Assembly (NCBI GenBank): GCA_025839675.1
Contig: CP104013.1
Location: 3,720,001 to 3,752,000, forward strand
DNA from: Candidatus Lokiarchaeum ossiferum
GTDB lineage: Archaea; Asgardarchaeota; Lokiarchaeia; Sigyniarchaeales; Promethearchaeaceae
Length of the DNA: 32,000 bases
Direction: 5' to 3'
Positions 18,860 through 27,087 of the stretch are shown here, piece by piece. The translations under genes and the position numbers were made by a program. The notes below the pieces were generated by a model. It was not told the origin of the DNA and ran no database searches. It saw only the letters and a list, made by a program, of their open reading frames with translations. Every line of letters starts with the position of its first letter. The stretch's first letter is position 1.

Positions 18860-19405
18860 ATGATCGAAATTCCAACCCTCCCCTCGGCGAGGTTAGTCTT
18901 AAGAAAACCAATGGAAAAGGATGCCATCGATCAATTGGAGTTATTTCGAGATCCAGAGGTCATGCGTTTTCATGGAGAAGAACCCTATCAATCTCTCCAA
19001 GAAGTAAAAGATGAGATTAATGCTTTTGTGGAGCTTGCTGAAACGGAAGAAGGGATGATTTGGATGATCATTTTAAAAGAAACAGATCAATGTATTGGAG
19101 ATATCGGATTTTTTAAGTGGGATAAAGCCAATTTCCGATGTGAAATTGGGTTTAAACTCAAACGAGATTGTTGGGGGAAAGGGTTAATGTCAGAGGCAGT
19201 CACAACGATTCTTGATTTTTTGTTTAATGAACTTAATTTAAACCGGGTGGAAGGATTGGTAGATCCGAACAATCTGCCATCTCAGAAGTTATTACGTCGC
19301 TTAGGTTTTCAAATGGAAGGGGTTCTGCGTGATTATGAGTTTGAAAAAGGTCGATTTGGCGATCTCCAGATGAATTCGTTATTAAAACGCGAATGGAATA
19401 AATAA
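18860..19405 (+). CDS. GNAT N-acetyltransferase, RimJ/RimL-like
   Basis: RLVLRKPMEKDAIDQLELFRDPEVMRF and WGKGLMSEAV...LNLNRVEGLVDPNNLPSQKLLRRLGF are typical of the Acetyltransf_3 subgroup. Confidence 0.85.
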   Translation: MIEIPTLPSARLVLRKPMEKDAIDQLELFRDPEVMRFHGEEPYQSLQEVKDEINAFVELAETEEGMIWMIILKETDQCIGDIGFFKWDKANFRCEIGFKLKRDCWGKGLMSEAVTTILDFLFNELNLNRVEGLVDPNNLPSQKLLRRLGFQMEGVLRDYEFEKGRFGDLQMNSLLKREWNK

Positions 19406-21922: not shown

Positions 21923-24466
21923 ATGTCAGAAAACACCATACTAATCTATAAGCTTAACACTGAAGGAAATATCATTGAAATCGATCCAACAAAGTTATTG
22001 GATGAATTTATTTCTGTTAATATCATCTTCTTCTATTTTTGGGATGAAAAACATCTATATGTGTGGATTGGCCAAAATGCTGGCAAGGAAATGCGCAAAT
22101 ATATTCCCCCCGCGGAAGAAAAAATTCTGAAATCCAATGATCGAGTTCGGATTCTCCGCCATTTTACTGTAGATCAAAATCAAGAATCTCGCGAATTTCT
22201 CGAAAAAATTCATCTCGATAAGAAGGATATTAAAAAACGGTCGGATGATTATTCCAAATATCGCATTAGTGTCTATCAAGAAATTCAAGATCTCCAAGTC
22301 GAAAAAGGGTCTAATTCAATGGTTGGGAAATTTGATGATGCGATTATTAAGGCGCGTGAAATAATTGAAACAGCCAAAAAAGTTAATGATGCAGATGTAA
22401 TCGAAGAAGAAGAACGATTTATTAAAGAAATGGAAGGAAATAAGGCGATTGCCGAAAAACGTAAAGAAGCTTCCAATAAAATCGCCTCGCTAACTGAATT
22501 ATTGCAAAGTCATATCGCTTCCAAAGATCCACTTGAGGCGCATACAGTTGCAGATGAGATCCGCACCCTTTATACCACATTAATTAAACGAGCAATACCC
22601 GGGACGTTGAAGCAACTCCTTTTCAAAGAAGAAAAGTTCTATGAAAGTTTCCGACATCAACAAGATGAAATTAAAGCGAAAGTGAATAAATTTGTGCACC
22701 CGATTGATCAAGATATTGAAACTCAAGATTTTGCGGATGCAAAGGAAAAATTCCAACAAGTATTTGAACTTCTTAAAGATTCAAAAGATGAAACTTTAAT
22801 TCAAGAATGGCAAGCAAAGCAGAAATATTTAGATGAACAGAAAGATTCTTGGGAAAAAGAACAAGAAGAAATTCGGAAACGGGAAGAAGAAATTGCTCGA
22901 AAAATTTCCGAGTTAAAAGCTGAAATTACCAAAGCTTTTGAAGCAAAGGATTATGAACAGGTGCAATTCTATCTCGCTGGATTAGAAAGTGTAAAAGAAG
23001 ATACTACTAAAAAAGACGTGTTAGAACAAACTCAAACTTATTCCTCCGAAATTCAAGAGAAATTGGCCCATATGCTTTTAATTGATACAAAAGTGGAGAA
23101 AATTACTACTAATCTTGCTGAAAGCAATCAGTTTGCCAACCAAAAGAATTATAATGAAAGTCTCGCTAAATTAGAAGCCACGCTTGAATTAGTTACATTA
23201 CCTGAATTGGAAGAGTATAGAGAAAAAATCGAATCAGAAATTCTACGAGTTAAAGGAGAAAAAGAAGTTTTCCAAAAACGGCTACAGACTTTTGACAAGT
23301 TAACCCAAACCGTTGTTGAAAATCAAGCGAAATTACAATGGAATGTTGCGATTCAAAATTGCACTAAAATTATCGAATTGGCGAAGGATTGTGATAAACT
23401 TGATGAGATTCCTAAATACCAAGCAATACTCGATACTGTCACTGAAAAATATAATCGACAAAAACAACTCGCCTTAGAAGAACAGGAAGCATTACTACAA
23501 AAAGCAAAAGCGATTGAAAATATCATCGAAGTTGATGAAGGTGTACTCCCAATGGTAGATGATTTTGCTATTTCCGATTTACTTGGGGATCTGGATGCGG
23601 ATGTGGATAATATGATGGATCAGTTAGGCTCCCTCTTGGAAACACAAAGGGTTGAAATCAAGACCGATCTGAGCAGTAAATCTGTGATTCGCAGTGCATC
23701 TGGGGAAGTTTTGGAATTAAATACCACAACAAATATTAAACAGGATGATTCACCTGCTAATGGTGATGGGCATCAAAAACCAATTTCGTTTTCAGTGGAA
23801 TCAGGGTTAGATAATCCTTTTGATGATTTCATAGAAGAGGCGATTATTGAAGATATTATTCCATATAATTTTGAAATCTCCGAGATAACATTGAACGGTG
23901 AAATTCCAATAGAAAAACCCGAACAAATTCTCTTAAAAGATGGGATGCAATTACACTGGGTTGTGAAAGATATTGCCCCTAAAGAATCAGTCAAAATAAA
24001 TTACGATTTAAAGCGACGAGTTTCCCGTACCATTATTTTGCCCTTAGAAGATCAATTGAAGATAATCAAAACCCATACTAATGTGCACCAACTCCATTTA
24101 GAGGGTTTATATGATGCGCAATTAAAATTTGCCAACCAATTTAAATCCGTACTAAGAGGTGTTGTGATAGAAGATATTGTCCCACAATTTTACGTGTTTG
24201 AAGTAAAACAACCTGATAATATTAATCCAGACTCACAACTGGAACAAAGTGCGGGATCCTTAGTAAAGTGGAATATTACTCAATTAGAACAAGAACATTC
24301 CATGTTGCATCGCTATCAGTTGCTTGAAATATTTCGTTTTGAAGATTTGAAAATTTCTATTGATCAAATGAGTAATGCGGCCTTTGAGGAATTAGAAAAA
24401 GGTAAATTAGGGGCAAGTCTTCAAAAATATTCCGATCTCATGAAATTACTCGACGAATATAAGTAA
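21923..24466 (+). CDS. Gelsolin-like domain protein with long periodic helical/coiled-coil region and two DUF11-like beta-sandwich repeats
   Basis: aa 5-97, LIYKLN...EIDPTKLLDEFISVNIIFFYFWDEKHLYVWIGQNAGKEMRKY...RVRILRHFTVDQNQESREFLEKI, fits the gelsolin pattern (L..D.yil....iyvWiG..as..e...a...v.eg.Es.eF). aa 100-530 are charged and helical with about 66-aa periodic modules. aa 640-800 hold two repeats of type (I/V)IEDI(I/V)P...W....(I/L)....Y.L. No signal peptide or TM segment is present. Confidence 0.6.
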   Translation: MSENTILIYKLNTEGNIIEIDPTKLLDEFISVNIIFFYFWDEKHLYVWIGQNAGKEMRKYIPPAEEKILKSNDRVRILRHFTVDQNQESREFLEKIHLDKKDIKKRSDDYSKYRISVYQEIQDLQVEKGSNSMVGKFDDAIIKAREIIETAKKVNDADVIEEEERFIKEMEGNKAIAEKRKEASNKIASLTELLQSHIASKDPLEAHTVADEIRTLYTTLIKRAIPGTLKQLLFKEEKFYESFRHQQDEIKAKVNKFVHPIDQDIETQDFADAKEKFQQVFELLKDSKDETLIQEWQAKQKYLDEQKDSWEKEQEEIRKREEEIARKISELKAEITKAFEAKDYEQVQFYLAGLESVKEDTTKKDVLEQTQTYSSEIQEKLAHMLLIDTKVEKITTNLAESNQFANQKNYNESLAKLEATLELVTLPELEEYREKIESEILRVKGEKEVFQKRLQTFDKLTQTVVENQAKLQWNVAIQNCTKIIELAKDCDKLDEIPKYQAILDTVTEKYNRQKQLALEEQEALLQKAKAIENIIEVDEGVLPMVDDFAISDLLGDLDADVDNMMDQLGSLLETQRVEIKTDLSSKSVIRSASGEVLELNTTTNIKQDDSPANGDGHQKPISFSVESGLDNPFDDFIEEAIIEDIIPYNFEISEITLNGEIPIEKPEQILLKDGMQLHWVVKDIAPKESVKINYDLKRRVSRTIILPLEDQLKIIKTHTNVHQLHLEGLYDAQLKFANQFKSVLRGVVIEDIVPQFYVFEVKQPDNINPDSQLEQSAGSLVKWNITQLEQEHSMLHRYQLLEIFRFEDLKISIDQMSNAAFEELEKGKLGASLQKYSDLMKLLDEYK

Positions 24467-24506
24467 TCTCTTTTTTATCATTATCTCACTTCGAGGCAAA
24501 AAACCA

Positions 24507-26561
24507 ATGGCTCAGCTTTCTAAAGATGAACTCTCAAATATTACCCTTTTTCTGGCTGAATGGGATGAAGCATTAGGACCGACGGTAAAAGATTATTTCA
24601 ATACGCTGGTCGAACTTGGTGATGTGGATATGATCGCCTTGAACATCTTTTCCACTTTTCAGATGGTTTTTGGGGAATCTACAGATGTATCATTCAAACG
24701 CACTGTTTTAACCATGCCCATGAATTCTCAAAAGGTAATTGCACGCATCGTTTTAGATATTATTCCTGATACTGATGTCCGAGGGGGATTTATGCCCTTC
24801 ATTGTCGTGATATTAATCCCAGATTTCCTTCCCGAAGATAAGATCTCTTCTTTTGATGAGATATTGGCAAAAATCGTCTCCAATTATAAAGAACATCATG
24901 GAATATCTCTCTCAAATTATAAAGGGGAGATTTTAAATGCGTTTTCCTTGGCTCAGCAAATTATTGAAGATCATATTTCAATAGATGTCTCCTATTCTTT
25001 AACCAGTGCAGTAGATGATTTTAAAAAAGGGGTAGGGTTATACAAACAGAAAAATTGGAACACTGCTTACATGCTCTTTCGTAAAGCTCTTCTGAAATTC
25101 CAGCAAGACAATCAAACTAAAATGGTTATGGAAGCAACATACCTCATTTCATCAATTTTAGTCCAACTGAAAAAGTTTCAACCCGCCTTGATCTATTACA
25201 CCAATCTTGTCCCCCTTGCTACTGAAATGTCTCATCAGAAGTATAAAGAGTTGGGATTGTTCATGCAGGGATTTTGTCATTATAAAATGCGAGATTTCAT
25301 GGATGCGATGGATACTTTTAACCAACTCCCTATTTTTCAATCCCAATTCGTGAATAAAGTTCAATATTTTTCTCTCAAAGGGCAAACCCAAGCGAATTTA
25401 CAAATGCATCAAGAAGCGATCGAAAGTTTAAGCCAAGCCTCCCTCTTGCTAAGTCAACAACCGGTGACCCAAATGTTGCAAAAACAACATGCCCAAATTT
25501 TGAATGATTTAGCTCTCCAATATTATAAAAGTGTAATTTCATTGTTAAAAACACAAGGCTTTTTTCACCATGCCCAAGGCGATGAATTACAAGATCAATT
25601 AAAAACCGCGATTTCGTATTATATTCGTGCTATATCTTTGTGGGATTTGCTGGGAGATTATAAAAATTCTATTCGAGCGCATCAAATGGTAGGAAATATC
25701 TATGGTTTTCTTCTTAATCCTTCCAAACAGTTGGATCATCTATTAACTGCTTTGGATAAGGTCGATCAGCTCAACAACTATGCTTTGAAACTTAATATTG
25801 CCTTCCAAATCGTGGAAATATATGAATCCTTAAAGGAATATGATGCAATAATTCATTTTCTGCAGAATTTAGGAGCTCAACTCACAAATAATGCTTTTGT
25901 GGATTTACTCTCGATTGCAAAAATTCATTTTCTAATTGGGAAAGCATTTATTGCTGTAGATCAACGAAGAAATGCGGCGGGGGAGCTGATTATGGCTATC
26001 AATAACTTAAAAAAGCTCAAGAATCCCGTTCCAGAAGAACTTGAAGCCCATTCTTTATTGATTGAACTATATAAAGAAGAACAAGACGAAACAAAGGTGG
26101 CATACTATACGGATCGGTTTGAAAAGTTGCAAAAGAAATACCACGCCATTCAACCCGTTTCTCTGAGTCGACTTGGTGTAATCAAGGATTTTTGGGTGTA
26201 TACTACCTCGGGATTAGAACTCTTCTCGCATGCTCCAGAAATAAAATTTGATCCCACCCTCTTAGGTGGATTTTTAACAGCCATGCAGTCCTTTTCCATG
26301 GAACTTAGTCAAACCGAATTACAGTCTTTGGTTATCGGAGGGTCGATTTATTCGTTTTATAACGAAGCAGGATCGGAATTCTATATCTTAGGCCGAACAA
26401 AATCCAACATCCCTCCCCACACCATTGAAGCTGCATTACAAAAGATTTACCACGCGTTCTCAAAGGAATTTAAGGCAGATTTGGTGTCTTTTTCTGGAAA
26501 TACGATTGCCTTCAGACGTTTTAAAGATGTTCTTAAACAATTAGATTTAAGCTTAATTTAA
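24507..26561 (+). CDS. Longin/uDENN-like - TPR-like - longin/roadblock-like protein (putative small-GTPase regulator)
   Basis: The N-terminus reads ITLFLAEWDEALGPTVKDYF...PFIVVILIP (W/F-D-E-x-x-G-P type). aa 165-545 are TPR-like helical repeats (GVGLYKQKNWNTAYMLFRKAL...). The C-terminus (aa 556-680) reads VIKDFWVYTTSGLELFSH...DPTLLGGFLTAMQSFSMEL...FYILGR. The stop lies 25 nt before the GTPase ATG. Confidence 0.55.
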   Translation: MAQLSKDELSNITLFLAEWDEALGPTVKDYFNTLVELGDVDMIALNIFSTFQMVFGESTDVSFKRTVLTMPMNSQKVIARIVLDIIPDTDVRGGFMPFIVVILIPDFLPEDKISSFDEILAKIVSNYKEHHGISLSNYKGEILNAFSLAQQIIEDHISIDVSYSLTSAVDDFKKGVGLYKQKNWNTAYMLFRKALLKFQQDNQTKMVMEATYLISSILVQLKKFQPALIYYTNLVPLATEMSHQKYKELGLFMQGFCHYKMRDFMDAMDTFNQLPIFQSQFVNKVQYFSLKGQTQANLQMHQEAIESLSQASLLLSQQPVTQMLQKQHAQILNDLALQYYKSVISLLKTQGFFHHAQGDELQDQLKTAISYYIRAISLWDLLGDYKNSIRAHQMVGNIYGFLLNPSKQLDHLLTALDKVDQLNNYALKLNIAFQIVEIYESLKEYDAIIHFLQNLGAQLTNNAFVDLLSIAKIHFLIGKAFIAVDQRRNAAGELIMAINNLKKLKNPVPEELEAHSLLIELYKEEQDETKVAYYTDRFEKLQKKYHAIQPVSLSRLGVIKDFWVYTTSGLELFSHAPEIKFDPTLLGGFLTAMQSFSMELSQTELQSLVIGGSIYSFYNEAGSEFYILGRTKSNIPPHTIEAALQKIYHAFSKEFKADLVSFSGNTIAFRRFKDVLKQLDLSLI

Positions 26562-26586
26562 TTCAATATATGTGGGGGAAAATTCA

Positions 26587-27087
26587 ATGAAACGACTTAA
26601 AATTGTTGTATTAAGGTTGGATCGCGCAGGAAAAACGGTGTTAGTAAACTATTTGATCTCAAAAAAGGTTGAAACTCAATTTCGACCCACTTTAACCTTT
26701 TCAATTAAAAGACTGAAATTATCTGACCGCACAATTGTTTTTTGGGATGCTCCCGGTCAAAAAAATTTACGAGGAACTTGGATGGATAGTTTGAAAAAAG
26801 CGGATTGCTTGATATATTTAGTAGATGTCGGTGATTTAGATCGGTTGAATGAATCGGTACATGAATTTCATCAAATTGCACAAAATGTTGATAGTTTAGA
26901 CATACCTCTCATTTTCTGCTATCATAAAGTGGATCTTCCTTACATCGAGGAGAATTTAGAAGAATGTAAAAAGGCATTTGATCTTGAAGGGCTCTATAAT
27001 GGTAAAATATTTCAATTGAATACTTCAGTCCACAATTCTGATTCGATTAGTGCAGTAGAAGAAATCTTACTCACTTTTGATCAATAA
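26587..27087 (+). CDS. Arf-family-like small GTPase with deviant G1/G3/G4 motifs
   Basis: It aligns without gaps to the Arf core. RLDRAGKT corresponds to GLDAAGKT, WDAPGQKNLRGTW to WDVGGQDKIRPLW, ADCLIYLVDVGD to GLIFVVDSND, and HKVD to NKQD. ATG 26587 is preceded by GGGGG; the track start GTG 26572 is possible. Confidence 0.8.
   Translation: MKRLKIVVLRLDRAGKTVLVNYLISKKVETQFRPTLTFSIKRLKLSDRTIVFWDAPGQKNLRGTWMDSLKKADCLIYLVDVGDLDRLNESVHEFHQIAQNVDSLDIPLIFCYHKVDLPYIEENLEECKKAFDLEGLYNGKIFQLNTSVHNSDSISAVEEILLTFDQ

Follow-up and report, generated by a model that had tools for sequence, protein, structure and literature searches.

A Lokiarchaeum ossiferum protein joining a gelsolin-homology domain, a helical rod and a double beta-sandwich module, and its conserved gene neighbourhood in Asgard archaea

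Architecture of the 847-residue protein

A 32,000-nucleotide stretch of the genome of Candidatus Lokiarchaeum ossiferum (GCA_025839675.1, contig CP104013.1, positions 3,720,001 to 3,752,000 of the forward strand; hereafter the window; G+C ~33%) was found to encode a protein of three parts: an N-terminal gelsolin-homology (GH) domain, a rod of six helical modules, and a C-terminal module with two beta-sandwiches (the C-module). The C-module, ~315 amino acids (aa) long, is the constant and defining part of an unannotated protein family that was recovered here from Asgard archaea alone. In the window the gene is directly followed, and at many other loci of the family directly adjoined, by that of a protein with tetratricopeptide (TPR) and longin-like domains; in the window a gene for an Arf-family small GTPase comes next. 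On balance, we lean towards the view that the protein serves as scaffold or effector subunit in a complex that is controlled by a small GTPase, is formed with the two downstream gene products and is possibly linked to actin.

The gene is a complete open reading frame (ORF):

21923..24466, + strand: complete ORF, 847 aa, 98.4 kDa, isoelectric point 4.9, cytoplasmic (from the ORF list)

An earlier note, made by reading this DNA without database searches, had proposed the same ORF, a gelsolin-like domain at aa 5-97, periodic helical modules, and two DUF11-like beta units in a cytoplasmic protein. Its coordinates for the ORF were exact. All of the peptides quoted in it were located, the helical motifs at residues 135, 268, 342, 408, 471, and 827 (offset by at most 1-2 residues) and the beta-unit peptides at 641/677 and 748/781. 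The three-part architecture was confirmed by the structural model, Foldseek, profile searches, hhalign, and repeat statistics. The full-length AlphaFold2 model had a mean predicted local distance difference test (pLDDT) score of 80. Neither a signal peptide nor a transmembrane segment was present, the Kyte-Doolittle peak over any 19-aa span being 1.15, and the cytoplasmic location stated in the earlier note therefore holds.

No family in Pfam, NCBIfam, or the PDB sequences spans the C-terminal module, and the source records name the relatives of the protein "hypothetical protein." Searches of the PDB sequences with the whole protein and with a C-module profile gave no relatives, and a viral structure library gave no significant match.

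The N-terminal domain is a divergent gelsolin-homology domain

21935..22213, + strand: GH domain, ProGel-like, aa 5-97 (sub-threshold Pfam match, PDB profile, Foldseek, model)

The Pfam Gelsolin model (PF00626), which has a cut-off of 21 bits, matched aa 39-93 below this threshold, with 14.9 bits in the whole protein and 18.7 bits when the domain was scanned alone. All PDB sequences were screened with a profile that combined the GH domains of five family members. The top five matches belonged exclusively to the gelsolin family (E 6e-4 to 9e-3): adseverin (6e-4), villin (1e-3), the Thorarchaeota ProGel (4.6e-3), whose alignment covered the domain end to end, and the Heimdall and Loki 2DGel proteins (E ~8e-3). 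Individually the matches were weak, yet they were mutually consistent. The AlphaFold2 model led to the same assignment. In it, aa 5-95 (pLDDT 60-80) run strand-strand-helix-strand-strand-long helix-strand-helix, so that the GH fold, a mixed central beta-sheet between a long and a short helix, is present. Foldseek aligned this part of the model with ProGel from the ProGel-actin complex (7c2f_B; prob 1.00, TMt 0.57, root mean square deviation (rmsd) 4.9 Å, 97 columns). The gelsolin-like assignment of the earlier note was thus borne out, and we conclude that aa 5-97 are a divergent GH domain of the ProGel type.

The earlier note had raised the question whether the calcium-binding residues of gelsolin are kept. 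In our alignment they appear not to be. The type-2 calcium site, which we take to consist of an Asp at a strand start and a Glu in the long helix (D66/E97 in G1 of gelsolin), aligned with an invariant Asn33 in place of the Asp, and the position of the helix Glu varied within the family. The domain appears from this alignment to lack canonical calcium sites. Their absence is no bar to membership in the GH group, because ProGel itself has no calcium sites (PMC7444086). An L[KR][KRD]V motif, as in the WH2-like LKDV/LRRV, was found nowhere in the 847-aa protein.

The helical rod is built from six modules

The rod, aa 100-531, was modeled as six modules of ~67 aa, each composed of a long and a short helix:

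22220..22378, + strand: helical module 1, long helix aa 100-133, short helix aa 137-152 (model; two hidden Markov models (HMMs), 16.8 and 13.0 bits)
22391..22585, + strand: helical module 2, long helix aa 157-199, short helix aa 203-221 (model only; missed by sequence profiles)
22601..22774, + strand: helical module 3, long helix aa 227-266, short helix aa 270-284 (model; HMM 13.2 bits)
22790..22996, + strand: helical module 4, long helix aa 290-340, short helix aa 344-358 (model; HMM 2.8 bits, marginal)
23012..23185, + strand: helical module 5, long helix aa 364-406, short helix aa 410-421 (model only; missed by sequence profiles)
23201..23515, + strand: helical module 6, aa 427-489, and the last long helix, aa 493-531 (model pLDDT ~90; HMM 43.5 bits)

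Thirteen helices were present in the rod model, the long ones with 34-51 and the short ones with 12-19 residues. The short helices start at residues 137, 203, 270, 344, 410, and 473 (spacings 66, 67, 74, 66, and 63) and coincide with the six module starts proposed earlier. A low pLDDT was seen within module 4 at aa 312-320. Module 6, with the motif W..AI.NC..II.LA, is conserved family-wide and is kept in 24 family members.

Several statistics were applied to the repeats. Pairwise self-similarity, determined by fragment-versus-rest Smith-Waterman alignment with shuffles, was not significant for aa 111-560 (mean best score 37.4 versus 34.6 ± 2.2 for the shuffles, z ~1.3). The 1417-aa homolog P0004 was strongly self-similar by this measure (59.0 versus 42.4 ± 1.4 shuffled), and it also gave a heptad signal (offset 7, z = 6.1). 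The BLOSUM62 autocorrelation of the query rod peaked at offsets 133, 67, 70, 200, 207, and 273, which form a harmonic series. A harmonic statistic, taken as the maximum over periods 40 to 72 so that the choice of period was corrected for, reached 14.9 at period 68, and the highest value among 2000 shuffles was 11.8. With 0 of 2000 shuffles reaching the observed value, the proposed periodicity proved statistically significant. Two HMMs made without the query clade added to this. HMM 1, which was built from the last module of other family members alone (shuffle maximum 5.7 bits), scored 43.5 bits for the last and 16.8 bits for the first module of the query. HMM 2, seeded with an internal repeat of P0004 and iterated (shuffle maximum 6.5 bits), detected modules 1, 3, and 6 with 13.0, 13.2, and 24.1 bits and gave 2.8 bits for module 4; modules 2 and 5 were not detected by it in the sequence.

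The motif by which the modules had originally been recognized, K-x-(F/Y/W)-x-x-A followed by further hydrophobic positions, did not survive in its literal form, which matches none of the copies. It did stand as a loose consensus of the six. A relaxed motif, itself built from the six copies, was found at their six sites and nowhere else; as a test this is circular. A seventh copy claimed at the extreme C terminus had to be given up, since the hhalign comparison with the rod modules showed no profile similarity (prob 1.7%).

In their sequences, the short helices seem to begin like TPR helix B, with the signature polar-aromatic-x-x-A/V/S. A weak TPR_2 match was seen at aa 266-285 (E 0.27), and weak Pfam matches to TPR, SNAP, and MIT families occurred in the query and its relatives. 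Foldseek matched the rod with the TPR domains of LGN (prob 0.98-1.00) at TM-scores of only 0.07-0.17. Because of these very low TM-scores, the rod is probably not a canonical TPR superhelix.

The C-module carries two related beta-sandwiches

23516..23773, + strand: start of the C-module, an acidic linker with a strand (aa 544-549), a helix (aa 561-574), and a beta-hairpin (aa 582-604, SKSVIRSASGEVLEL) (model, conserved columns)
23774..24094, + strand: beta-sandwich 1, aa 618-724, DUF11-type (models; hhalign against beta-sandwich 2, E 2.2e-10)
24095..24340, + strand: beta-sandwich 2, aa 725-806, DUF11-type (models, hhalign)
24341..24466, + strand: C-terminal helical hairpin, aa 807-847, with the conserved tail L-x-x-[YF]-x(1-4)-stop (models, tail conservation)

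When aa 530-847 were modeled alone from 37 sequences, a single compact body was obtained (pLDDT 88.9, predicted TM-score (pTM) 0.85) in which a strand, a helix, a beta-hairpin, the two beta-sandwiches, and the helical hairpin follow one another. Beta-sandwich 1 carries the motifs NPFDD.IEEA, D.IPYNFE, YDL.RRVSRT, and KTH, with P647, Y648, W679, R699, S701, R702, T717, and H718 near-invariant, and beta-sandwich 2 the motifs EGLY.A, IEDI.P, and VKWN. The tail L-x-x-[YF], with the end of the protein one to four residues later, was found in 90 family members. A 134-aa protein encoded near the P0004 gene (L001 15413-15817, - strand) shares 35% identity over 40 aa with the query hairpin (aa 808-847), and the hairpin may therefore also occur as an independent small protein.

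The profiles of sandwich 1 and sandwich 2 aligned over 70 columns with hhalign (prob 96.8%, E 2.2e-10); thus, the two are duplicates. The earlier note had called them DUF11-like. Pfam DUF11 (PF01345) did not match the query C-module even at E <= 10, and it matched three of 15 family C-modules weakly (best E 5.8e-3). In an exhaustive search, the C-module profile found P0132 (E 3e-21, in 12 stretches) and also P0175, P0176, and P0177, all four of which are DUF11 arrays in Pfam (E 1e-68 to 1e-174). Because true DUF11 arrays are retrieved by the profile, the DUF11-like call is right at the level of remote homology, and we regard the sandwiches, on these profile matches, as remote homologs of DUF11.

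Proteins with DUF11 repeats are typically surface proteins. The relationship of the beta units to DUF11 could accordingly speak for a cell-surface or secreted adhesin-like protein that leaves the cell by non-classical export. We consider this hardly credible. The protein has neither a signal peptide nor a transmembrane segment, it is acidic and combines a GH domain with a helical rod, and its neighbour genes encode cytoplasmic signalling proteins. Moreover, the DUF11 units number only two and form one compact body together with helices, as the pTM given above indicates.

Structural comparison of the C-module raised another possibility, that of a primitive vesicle-coat or cargo adaptor in which the C-module is a cargo- or lipid-binding domain resembling the mu-homology domain, or a beta-sandwich like those of Sec23/24, and the GH domain acts on the Arf/Sar-like GTPase next door, much as the gelsolin domain of Sec23 acts on Sar1. 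The neighbouring Arf-family GTPase gene would fit, and the 50 listed Foldseek matches of the C-module in the PDB were mostly mu-homology domains (AP-1 mu1, AP-2 mu2, AP-4 mu4, and delta-COP; prob up to 0.95). We judge this reading very improbable. The mu-homology matches had TM-scores of 0.22-0.30, an rmsd of ~19 Å, and E-values of 4.9e-3 at best. In the mu-homology domain, as known from the AP-2 mu2 structure, one subdomain is inserted into the other, unlike the tandem duplicates of the C-module. Sparse Pfam matches to the mu C-terminal domain have been described from Asgard archaea (Eme et al. 2023, PMC10307638), and proteins of the C-module family do not give this match. Pfam Adap_comp_sub (PF00928) was matched by no family member proper: none of 15 C-modules matched at E <= 10, and when 44 further members were scanned at E <= 0.01, the sole match was P0132 (3e-12). 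In P0132, which has 16 DUF11 repeats, the score was summed over the repeats, and no single stretch passed. P0132 also matched Alpha_adaptinC2, CARDB, and bMG10, and its relatives matched TRAP_beta and integrin Ig families. Since these proteins match so many sandwich families, the resemblance is one of Ig-like sandwiches in general. A mu-homology identity of the C-module was rejected on account of the low TM-scores and the summed-repeat nature of the Pfam score.

The C-module defines a family recovered from Asgard archaea

A word-indexed search with the whole 847-aa protein found four relatives, probably so few because the helical region swamped the index. With a C-module profile, 34 relatives were found, and an exhaustive HMMER search gave 182 representatives at E <= 1e-3 (84 at E <= 1e-30), each standing for a 50%-identity cluster. 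The phyletic survey of orthologs proposed in the earlier note gave a uniform result: all 24 loci from GTDB species representatives are from Asgard archaea, namely Promethearchaeota (including the cultured Promethearchaeum syntrophicum MK-D1), Hermod-, Hod-, and Thorarchaeota, and Harpocratesius. The C-module was constant throughout, and the GH domain was found as the N-terminal domain of 25 family proteins, with total lengths of 507-1417 aa and from one to 10 or more helical modules.

The majority of family members combine the rod and the C-module but lack a GH domain. Their N termini consist of extra helical repeats, SNAP/TPR-like regions, or a VWA domain with a zinc-ribbon. P0091, P0105, P0108, and P0119 form a subfamily of ~1100 aa in which the C-module is preceded by a VWA domain at the N terminus and by RING-like or zinc-ribbon-like motifs. 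These paralogs bear on the coat-adaptor explanation, because the family as a whole shows the five domain types of Sec23/24 (zinc-finger, VWA trunk, beta-barrel, helical, and gelsolin), and the Sec23-like proteins of Asgard archaea reportedly have no gelsolin domain (PMC11914678). Kinship with Sec23/24 was nevertheless rejected for the paralogs with VWA and zinc-ribbon: a sequence search with P0108 showed no Sec23/24. The C-module, too, showed no match to Sec23/24 by sequence or fold, no such chain being among the 50 listed Foldseek matches, and the content and order of domains differ from those of Sec23/24.

In two metagenome-assembled genomes (MAGs; DZ2M.219 and EB_bin_12), at two loci each, the GH-rod and the rod-C-module parts are separate adjacent genes with start codons of their own:

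L009 617-3743: split GH-rod and rod-C-module genes
L021 1652-4697: split GH-rod and rod-C-module genes
L022 1794-4919: split GH-rod and rod-C-module genes
L023 5895-8936: split GH-rod and rod-C-module genes

Such adjacent halves are a link of the Rosetta-stone type. The upstream GH proteins of L009 and L022 (~433 aa) end in NQLKDFMN and SQLKDFMDG, respectively, which resembles the family C-terminal tail. Tandem paralogs are common (L002 1174-4527; L008; L010; L011; L017; L018; L024), with a GH-bearing family gene followed directly by a second family gene that usually has no GH domain. At L002 and L010, the tandem family pair is followed by two paralogous TPR-longin genes. One 300-aa protein, P0035, in which a sigma-70 region 1.2-like N terminus (PF00140) is joined to part of a C-module on a 1.5-kb contig, is probably an assembly chimera.

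Longin-TPR and Arf-like genes lie near the family gene

24507..26561, + strand: longin-like/TPR/longin-like protein, 684 aa, 40 nt downstream (TPR matches, Mon1 longin match)
26572..27087, + strand: Arf-family small GTPase, 166-171 aa, ATG at 26587, 10 nt further downstream (Pfam Arf, 2.7e-26)

The three genes of the window follow each other with intergenic gaps of 40 and 10 nt. The C-terminal 135 aa of the TPR protein gave the first longin domain of Mon1 as best profile match (E 0.013). Its N-terminal 150 aa look longin-type (or, by eye, uDENN-like) in sequence and have no counterpart in the L003 and L004 orthologs, which are 534 and 544 aa long. Known defence systems were rejected as an identity for the cluster, since the PADLOC models matched neither the scaffold nor the TPR protein and matched the GTPase with 16 bits only.

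The neighbourhood was surveyed at 32 family loci, several of which are cut by contig ends. At 15 of them, including that of MK-D1, a TPR gene directly adjoins the C-module gene on the same strand, and the TPR protein of the window is orthologous over its full length to the neighbours of distant family members (29-37% identity). The pairing persists where the GH domain is missing (L003, L004, and L026); hence, the partner is tied to the C-module or the rod and not to the GH domain. Two loci, L017 (3994-4422, Hodarchaeota MAG) and L018 (320-757, Thorarchaeota MAG), have in place of the full TPR-longin gene a small ORF of ~145 aa directly upstream of the family genes that matches the longin-like C-terminal domain of the TPR protein alone. 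Arf-like genes were found in the flanks of six of the 32 loci.

The GTPase of the window has an atypical P-loop, RLDRAGKT, with Arg for the first Gly of the Arf motif GxxxxGKT, and HKVD replaces the guanine-specificity motif NKxD. With 166-171 aa it is too short for an N-terminal amphipathic helix. Arf-like genes elsewhere encode ~320-340 aa, and the ortholog in L002 has the canonical motifs GLSRVGKT and NKID and an N-terminal extension of ~150 aa.

Upstream of the family gene, a gene for a GNAT acetyltransferase (Acetyltransf_3) was seen in the window (18860-19405, + strand) and again in the distant locus L002 (238-783, - strand), the two products being 26% identical; this may be chance or part of an extended conserved neighbourhood.

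Small GTPase genes of MK-D1 are generally not found in operons with roadblock, longin, or TRAPPC3 genes (Tran et al., PMC10933270), and a cluster of GTPase and longin genes is therefore uncommon.

Proposed function

The conserved C-module together with the gene cluster, which the earlier note had missed, is probably the most informative feature of the system. The scaffold and TPR genes are probably co-transcribed. We infer a physical interaction of the protein with the products of the neighbouring genes and its control by the GTPase; actin might be bound as well. In the mechanism that we propose, the C-module, which is rigid and highly conserved, would dock onto the longin-TPR-longin partner. 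The rod would project the GH domain and, because orthologs differ in the number of modules (from one or two up to more than 10), is probably a spacer or an oligomerization element. In the subfamily that bears it, the GH domain may contact actin (Lokiactin) or another target. The Arf-like GTPase would control the complex of the scaffold and the longin-TPR-longin protein. Longin domains are the usual platforms of guanine nucleotide exchange factors (GEFs) and GTPase-activating proteins (GAPs) for GTPases of the Arf, Rab, and Rag types.

A different explanation is that the protein is a stand-alone gelsolin-class actin regulator or cross-linker, the GH domain binding Lokiactin and the neighbouring genes being irrelevant. 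As a cross-linker, it would dimerize through a coiled-coil rod, so that two GH domains bundle or space filaments in the manner of alpha-actinin or spectrin. The heptad signal of P0004 is in line with this. ProGel, the nearest relative of the GH domain, bundles filaments when highly concentrated (PMC7444086), and 1DGelX offers a precedent for a GH domain with a coiled-coil extension and strong actin activity. We nonetheless regard this explanation as unlikely. Most members of the family consist of rod and C-module without a GH domain; therefore, the conserved function cannot be GH-mediated actin binding. The 847-aa protein has no WH2-like motif, an invariant Asn33 occupies the canonical type-2 Asp position, and the GH proteins singled out in the Lokiactin co-immunoprecipitation (co-IP) do not include this protein. 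Furthermore, a stand-alone regulator leaves the conserved synteny with TPR-longin and Arf-like genes unexplained. The conserved C-module and its cluster with these genes thus make such a role less likely.

Several observations weigh against the GTPase-controlled scaffold that we prefer. Concerning actin, the GH domain scores under the Pfam threshold, and we know of no actin binding by the GH domain of Sec23. ProGel, the closest solved relative, binds rabbit actin weakly (Kd ~337 µM; PMC7444086). Concerning the partners, ~7 loci with adequate flanks, about half, have no TPR gene (L001, L015, L016, and L021-L024), and an Arf-like gene is present at six loci only. With its atypical P-loop and HKVD for NKxD, the GTPase of the window may be a poor or unusual switch. 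A T-rich stretch (tctcttttttatc, 24467-24506) lies immediately 3' of the scaffold stop codon and could, judged by its composition, be an archaeal terminator or attenuator before the TPR gene, which would weaken the case for co-transcription. Finally, the Arf and the GH proteins found with Lokiactin in the L. ossiferum co-IP differ in mass from the products of the locus. Identity with the co-IP Arf was rejected (30.4 kDa versus ~19.5 kDa for the Arf of the window), as was identity with B35_Gel1 and B35_Gel2 (37.8 and 68.3 kDa versus 98.4 kDa).

A farther-reaching idea, to which we assign little probability, is that the three-gene cluster would encode a self-contained, pre-eukaryotic GTPase machine of the Arf type, in which a membrane or trafficking switch is coupled to actin, or a proto-coat, and that the family paralogs, with their VWA, zinc-ribbon, beta-sandwich, helical, and gelsolin parts, would preserve the building blocks that went into coat subunits of the Sec23/24 type. 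The GH domain would then act on Lokiactin or, by analogy with the gelsolin domain of Sec23 and its action on Sar1, directly on the neighbouring GTPase.

Significance for Asgard cell biology

Asgard archaea have many small GTPases, longin and roadblock domains, and gelsolins, and which of these act together is rarely known. Matching GTPases with their GAPs and GEFs from the genome layout has been difficult in MK-D1 (Tran et al., PMC10933270). The locus described here presents a conserved matched set of an Arf-like GTPase, a longin-TPR-longin protein, and a scaffold that carries a GH domain in one subfamily. The set is directly testable, since it is also present in the cultured strains P. syntrophicum MK-D1 and L. 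ossiferum. If the GH domain binds Lokiactin, the set would be the first candidate for a link from Arf signalling to actin in an archaeon. Such a link, if true, would agree with the presence of an unexplained Arf, the product of a different gene, in the co-IP made with Lokiactin from L. ossiferum (10.1101/2025.11.30.690169). The family itself, unannotated, recovered from Asgard archaea and comprising ~180 clusters, presents a compact cytoplasmic use of DUF11-type domains. Parts that are cytoskeleton-like and trafficking-like are thereby brought together in the closest archaeal relatives of eukaryotes. The bearing on Asgard cell biology is bounded by the fact that the function is deduced from an observed architecture.

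Comparison with known systems

Asgard gelsolins have been grouped into ProGel, 1DGelX (one GH domain with a coiled-coil X domain), and 2DGel (Akil et al. 2020, PMC7444086). Later work described L. ossiferum gelsolin variants with long extensions; GelX, 2DGel, and single-GH proteins of 37.8 and 68.3 kDa were listed in the co-IP preprint (10.1101/2025.11.30.690169), and gelsolin domains occur in many other Asgard proteins (PMC11914678). The earlier note had placed the protein outside the characterized Asgard gelsolins, and this holds, as no class or mass listed in these sources (PMC7444086; 10.1101/2025.11.30.690169) matches the 98-kDa protein. A single GH domain ahead of 750 aa of rod and beta module, without an L[KR][KRD]V motif, is not the architecture of ProGel, 1DGelX, or 2DGel. 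In the papers searched, neither this architecture nor the C-module family or the gene cluster was described.

With ProGel (7c2f_B), aa 5-97 share fold and size, and both proteins depart from the calcium site, ProGel having none and the query having Asn33 for the Asp. Sequence identity is ~15%, and ProGel stands alone with ~90 aa, whereas the domain here is the head of an 847-aa protein. 1DGelX, compared by description, likewise has a single GH domain and then a helical C-terminal extension; a six-module rod and a 315-aa beta-rich C-module have not been reported for it. The beta units share the signature v.D.iP..f with repeats of the DUF11 (PF01345) and CARDB type, and their profile retrieves DUF11 arrays. 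They differ in scoring below threshold and in being present as two copies in a cytoplasmic, compact, helix-fused module with the motifs RRVSRT and KTH of its own. The short helices of the rod are like helix B of TPR- and MIT-like repeats (LGN and alpha-SNAP), and Foldseek gave high probabilities for LGN, but the period is ~67 instead of 34 aa, the long helices have 34-51 residues, and the TM-scores are low.

The gene set recalls the longin regulators of GTPases, Mon1-Ccz1 and the SRX domain of SRalpha with SRbeta, in that a Mon1-like longin neighbour occurs with an Arf-like GTPase. The similarity is weak (E 0.013), and the TPR core and the GH-rod-DUF11 partner have no described counterpart there. 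Taken together, known domain types, i.e. GH, TPR-like helices, and DUF11, are present in a new, conserved, and Asgard-restricted arrangement that is accompanied by a conserved set of genomic partners.

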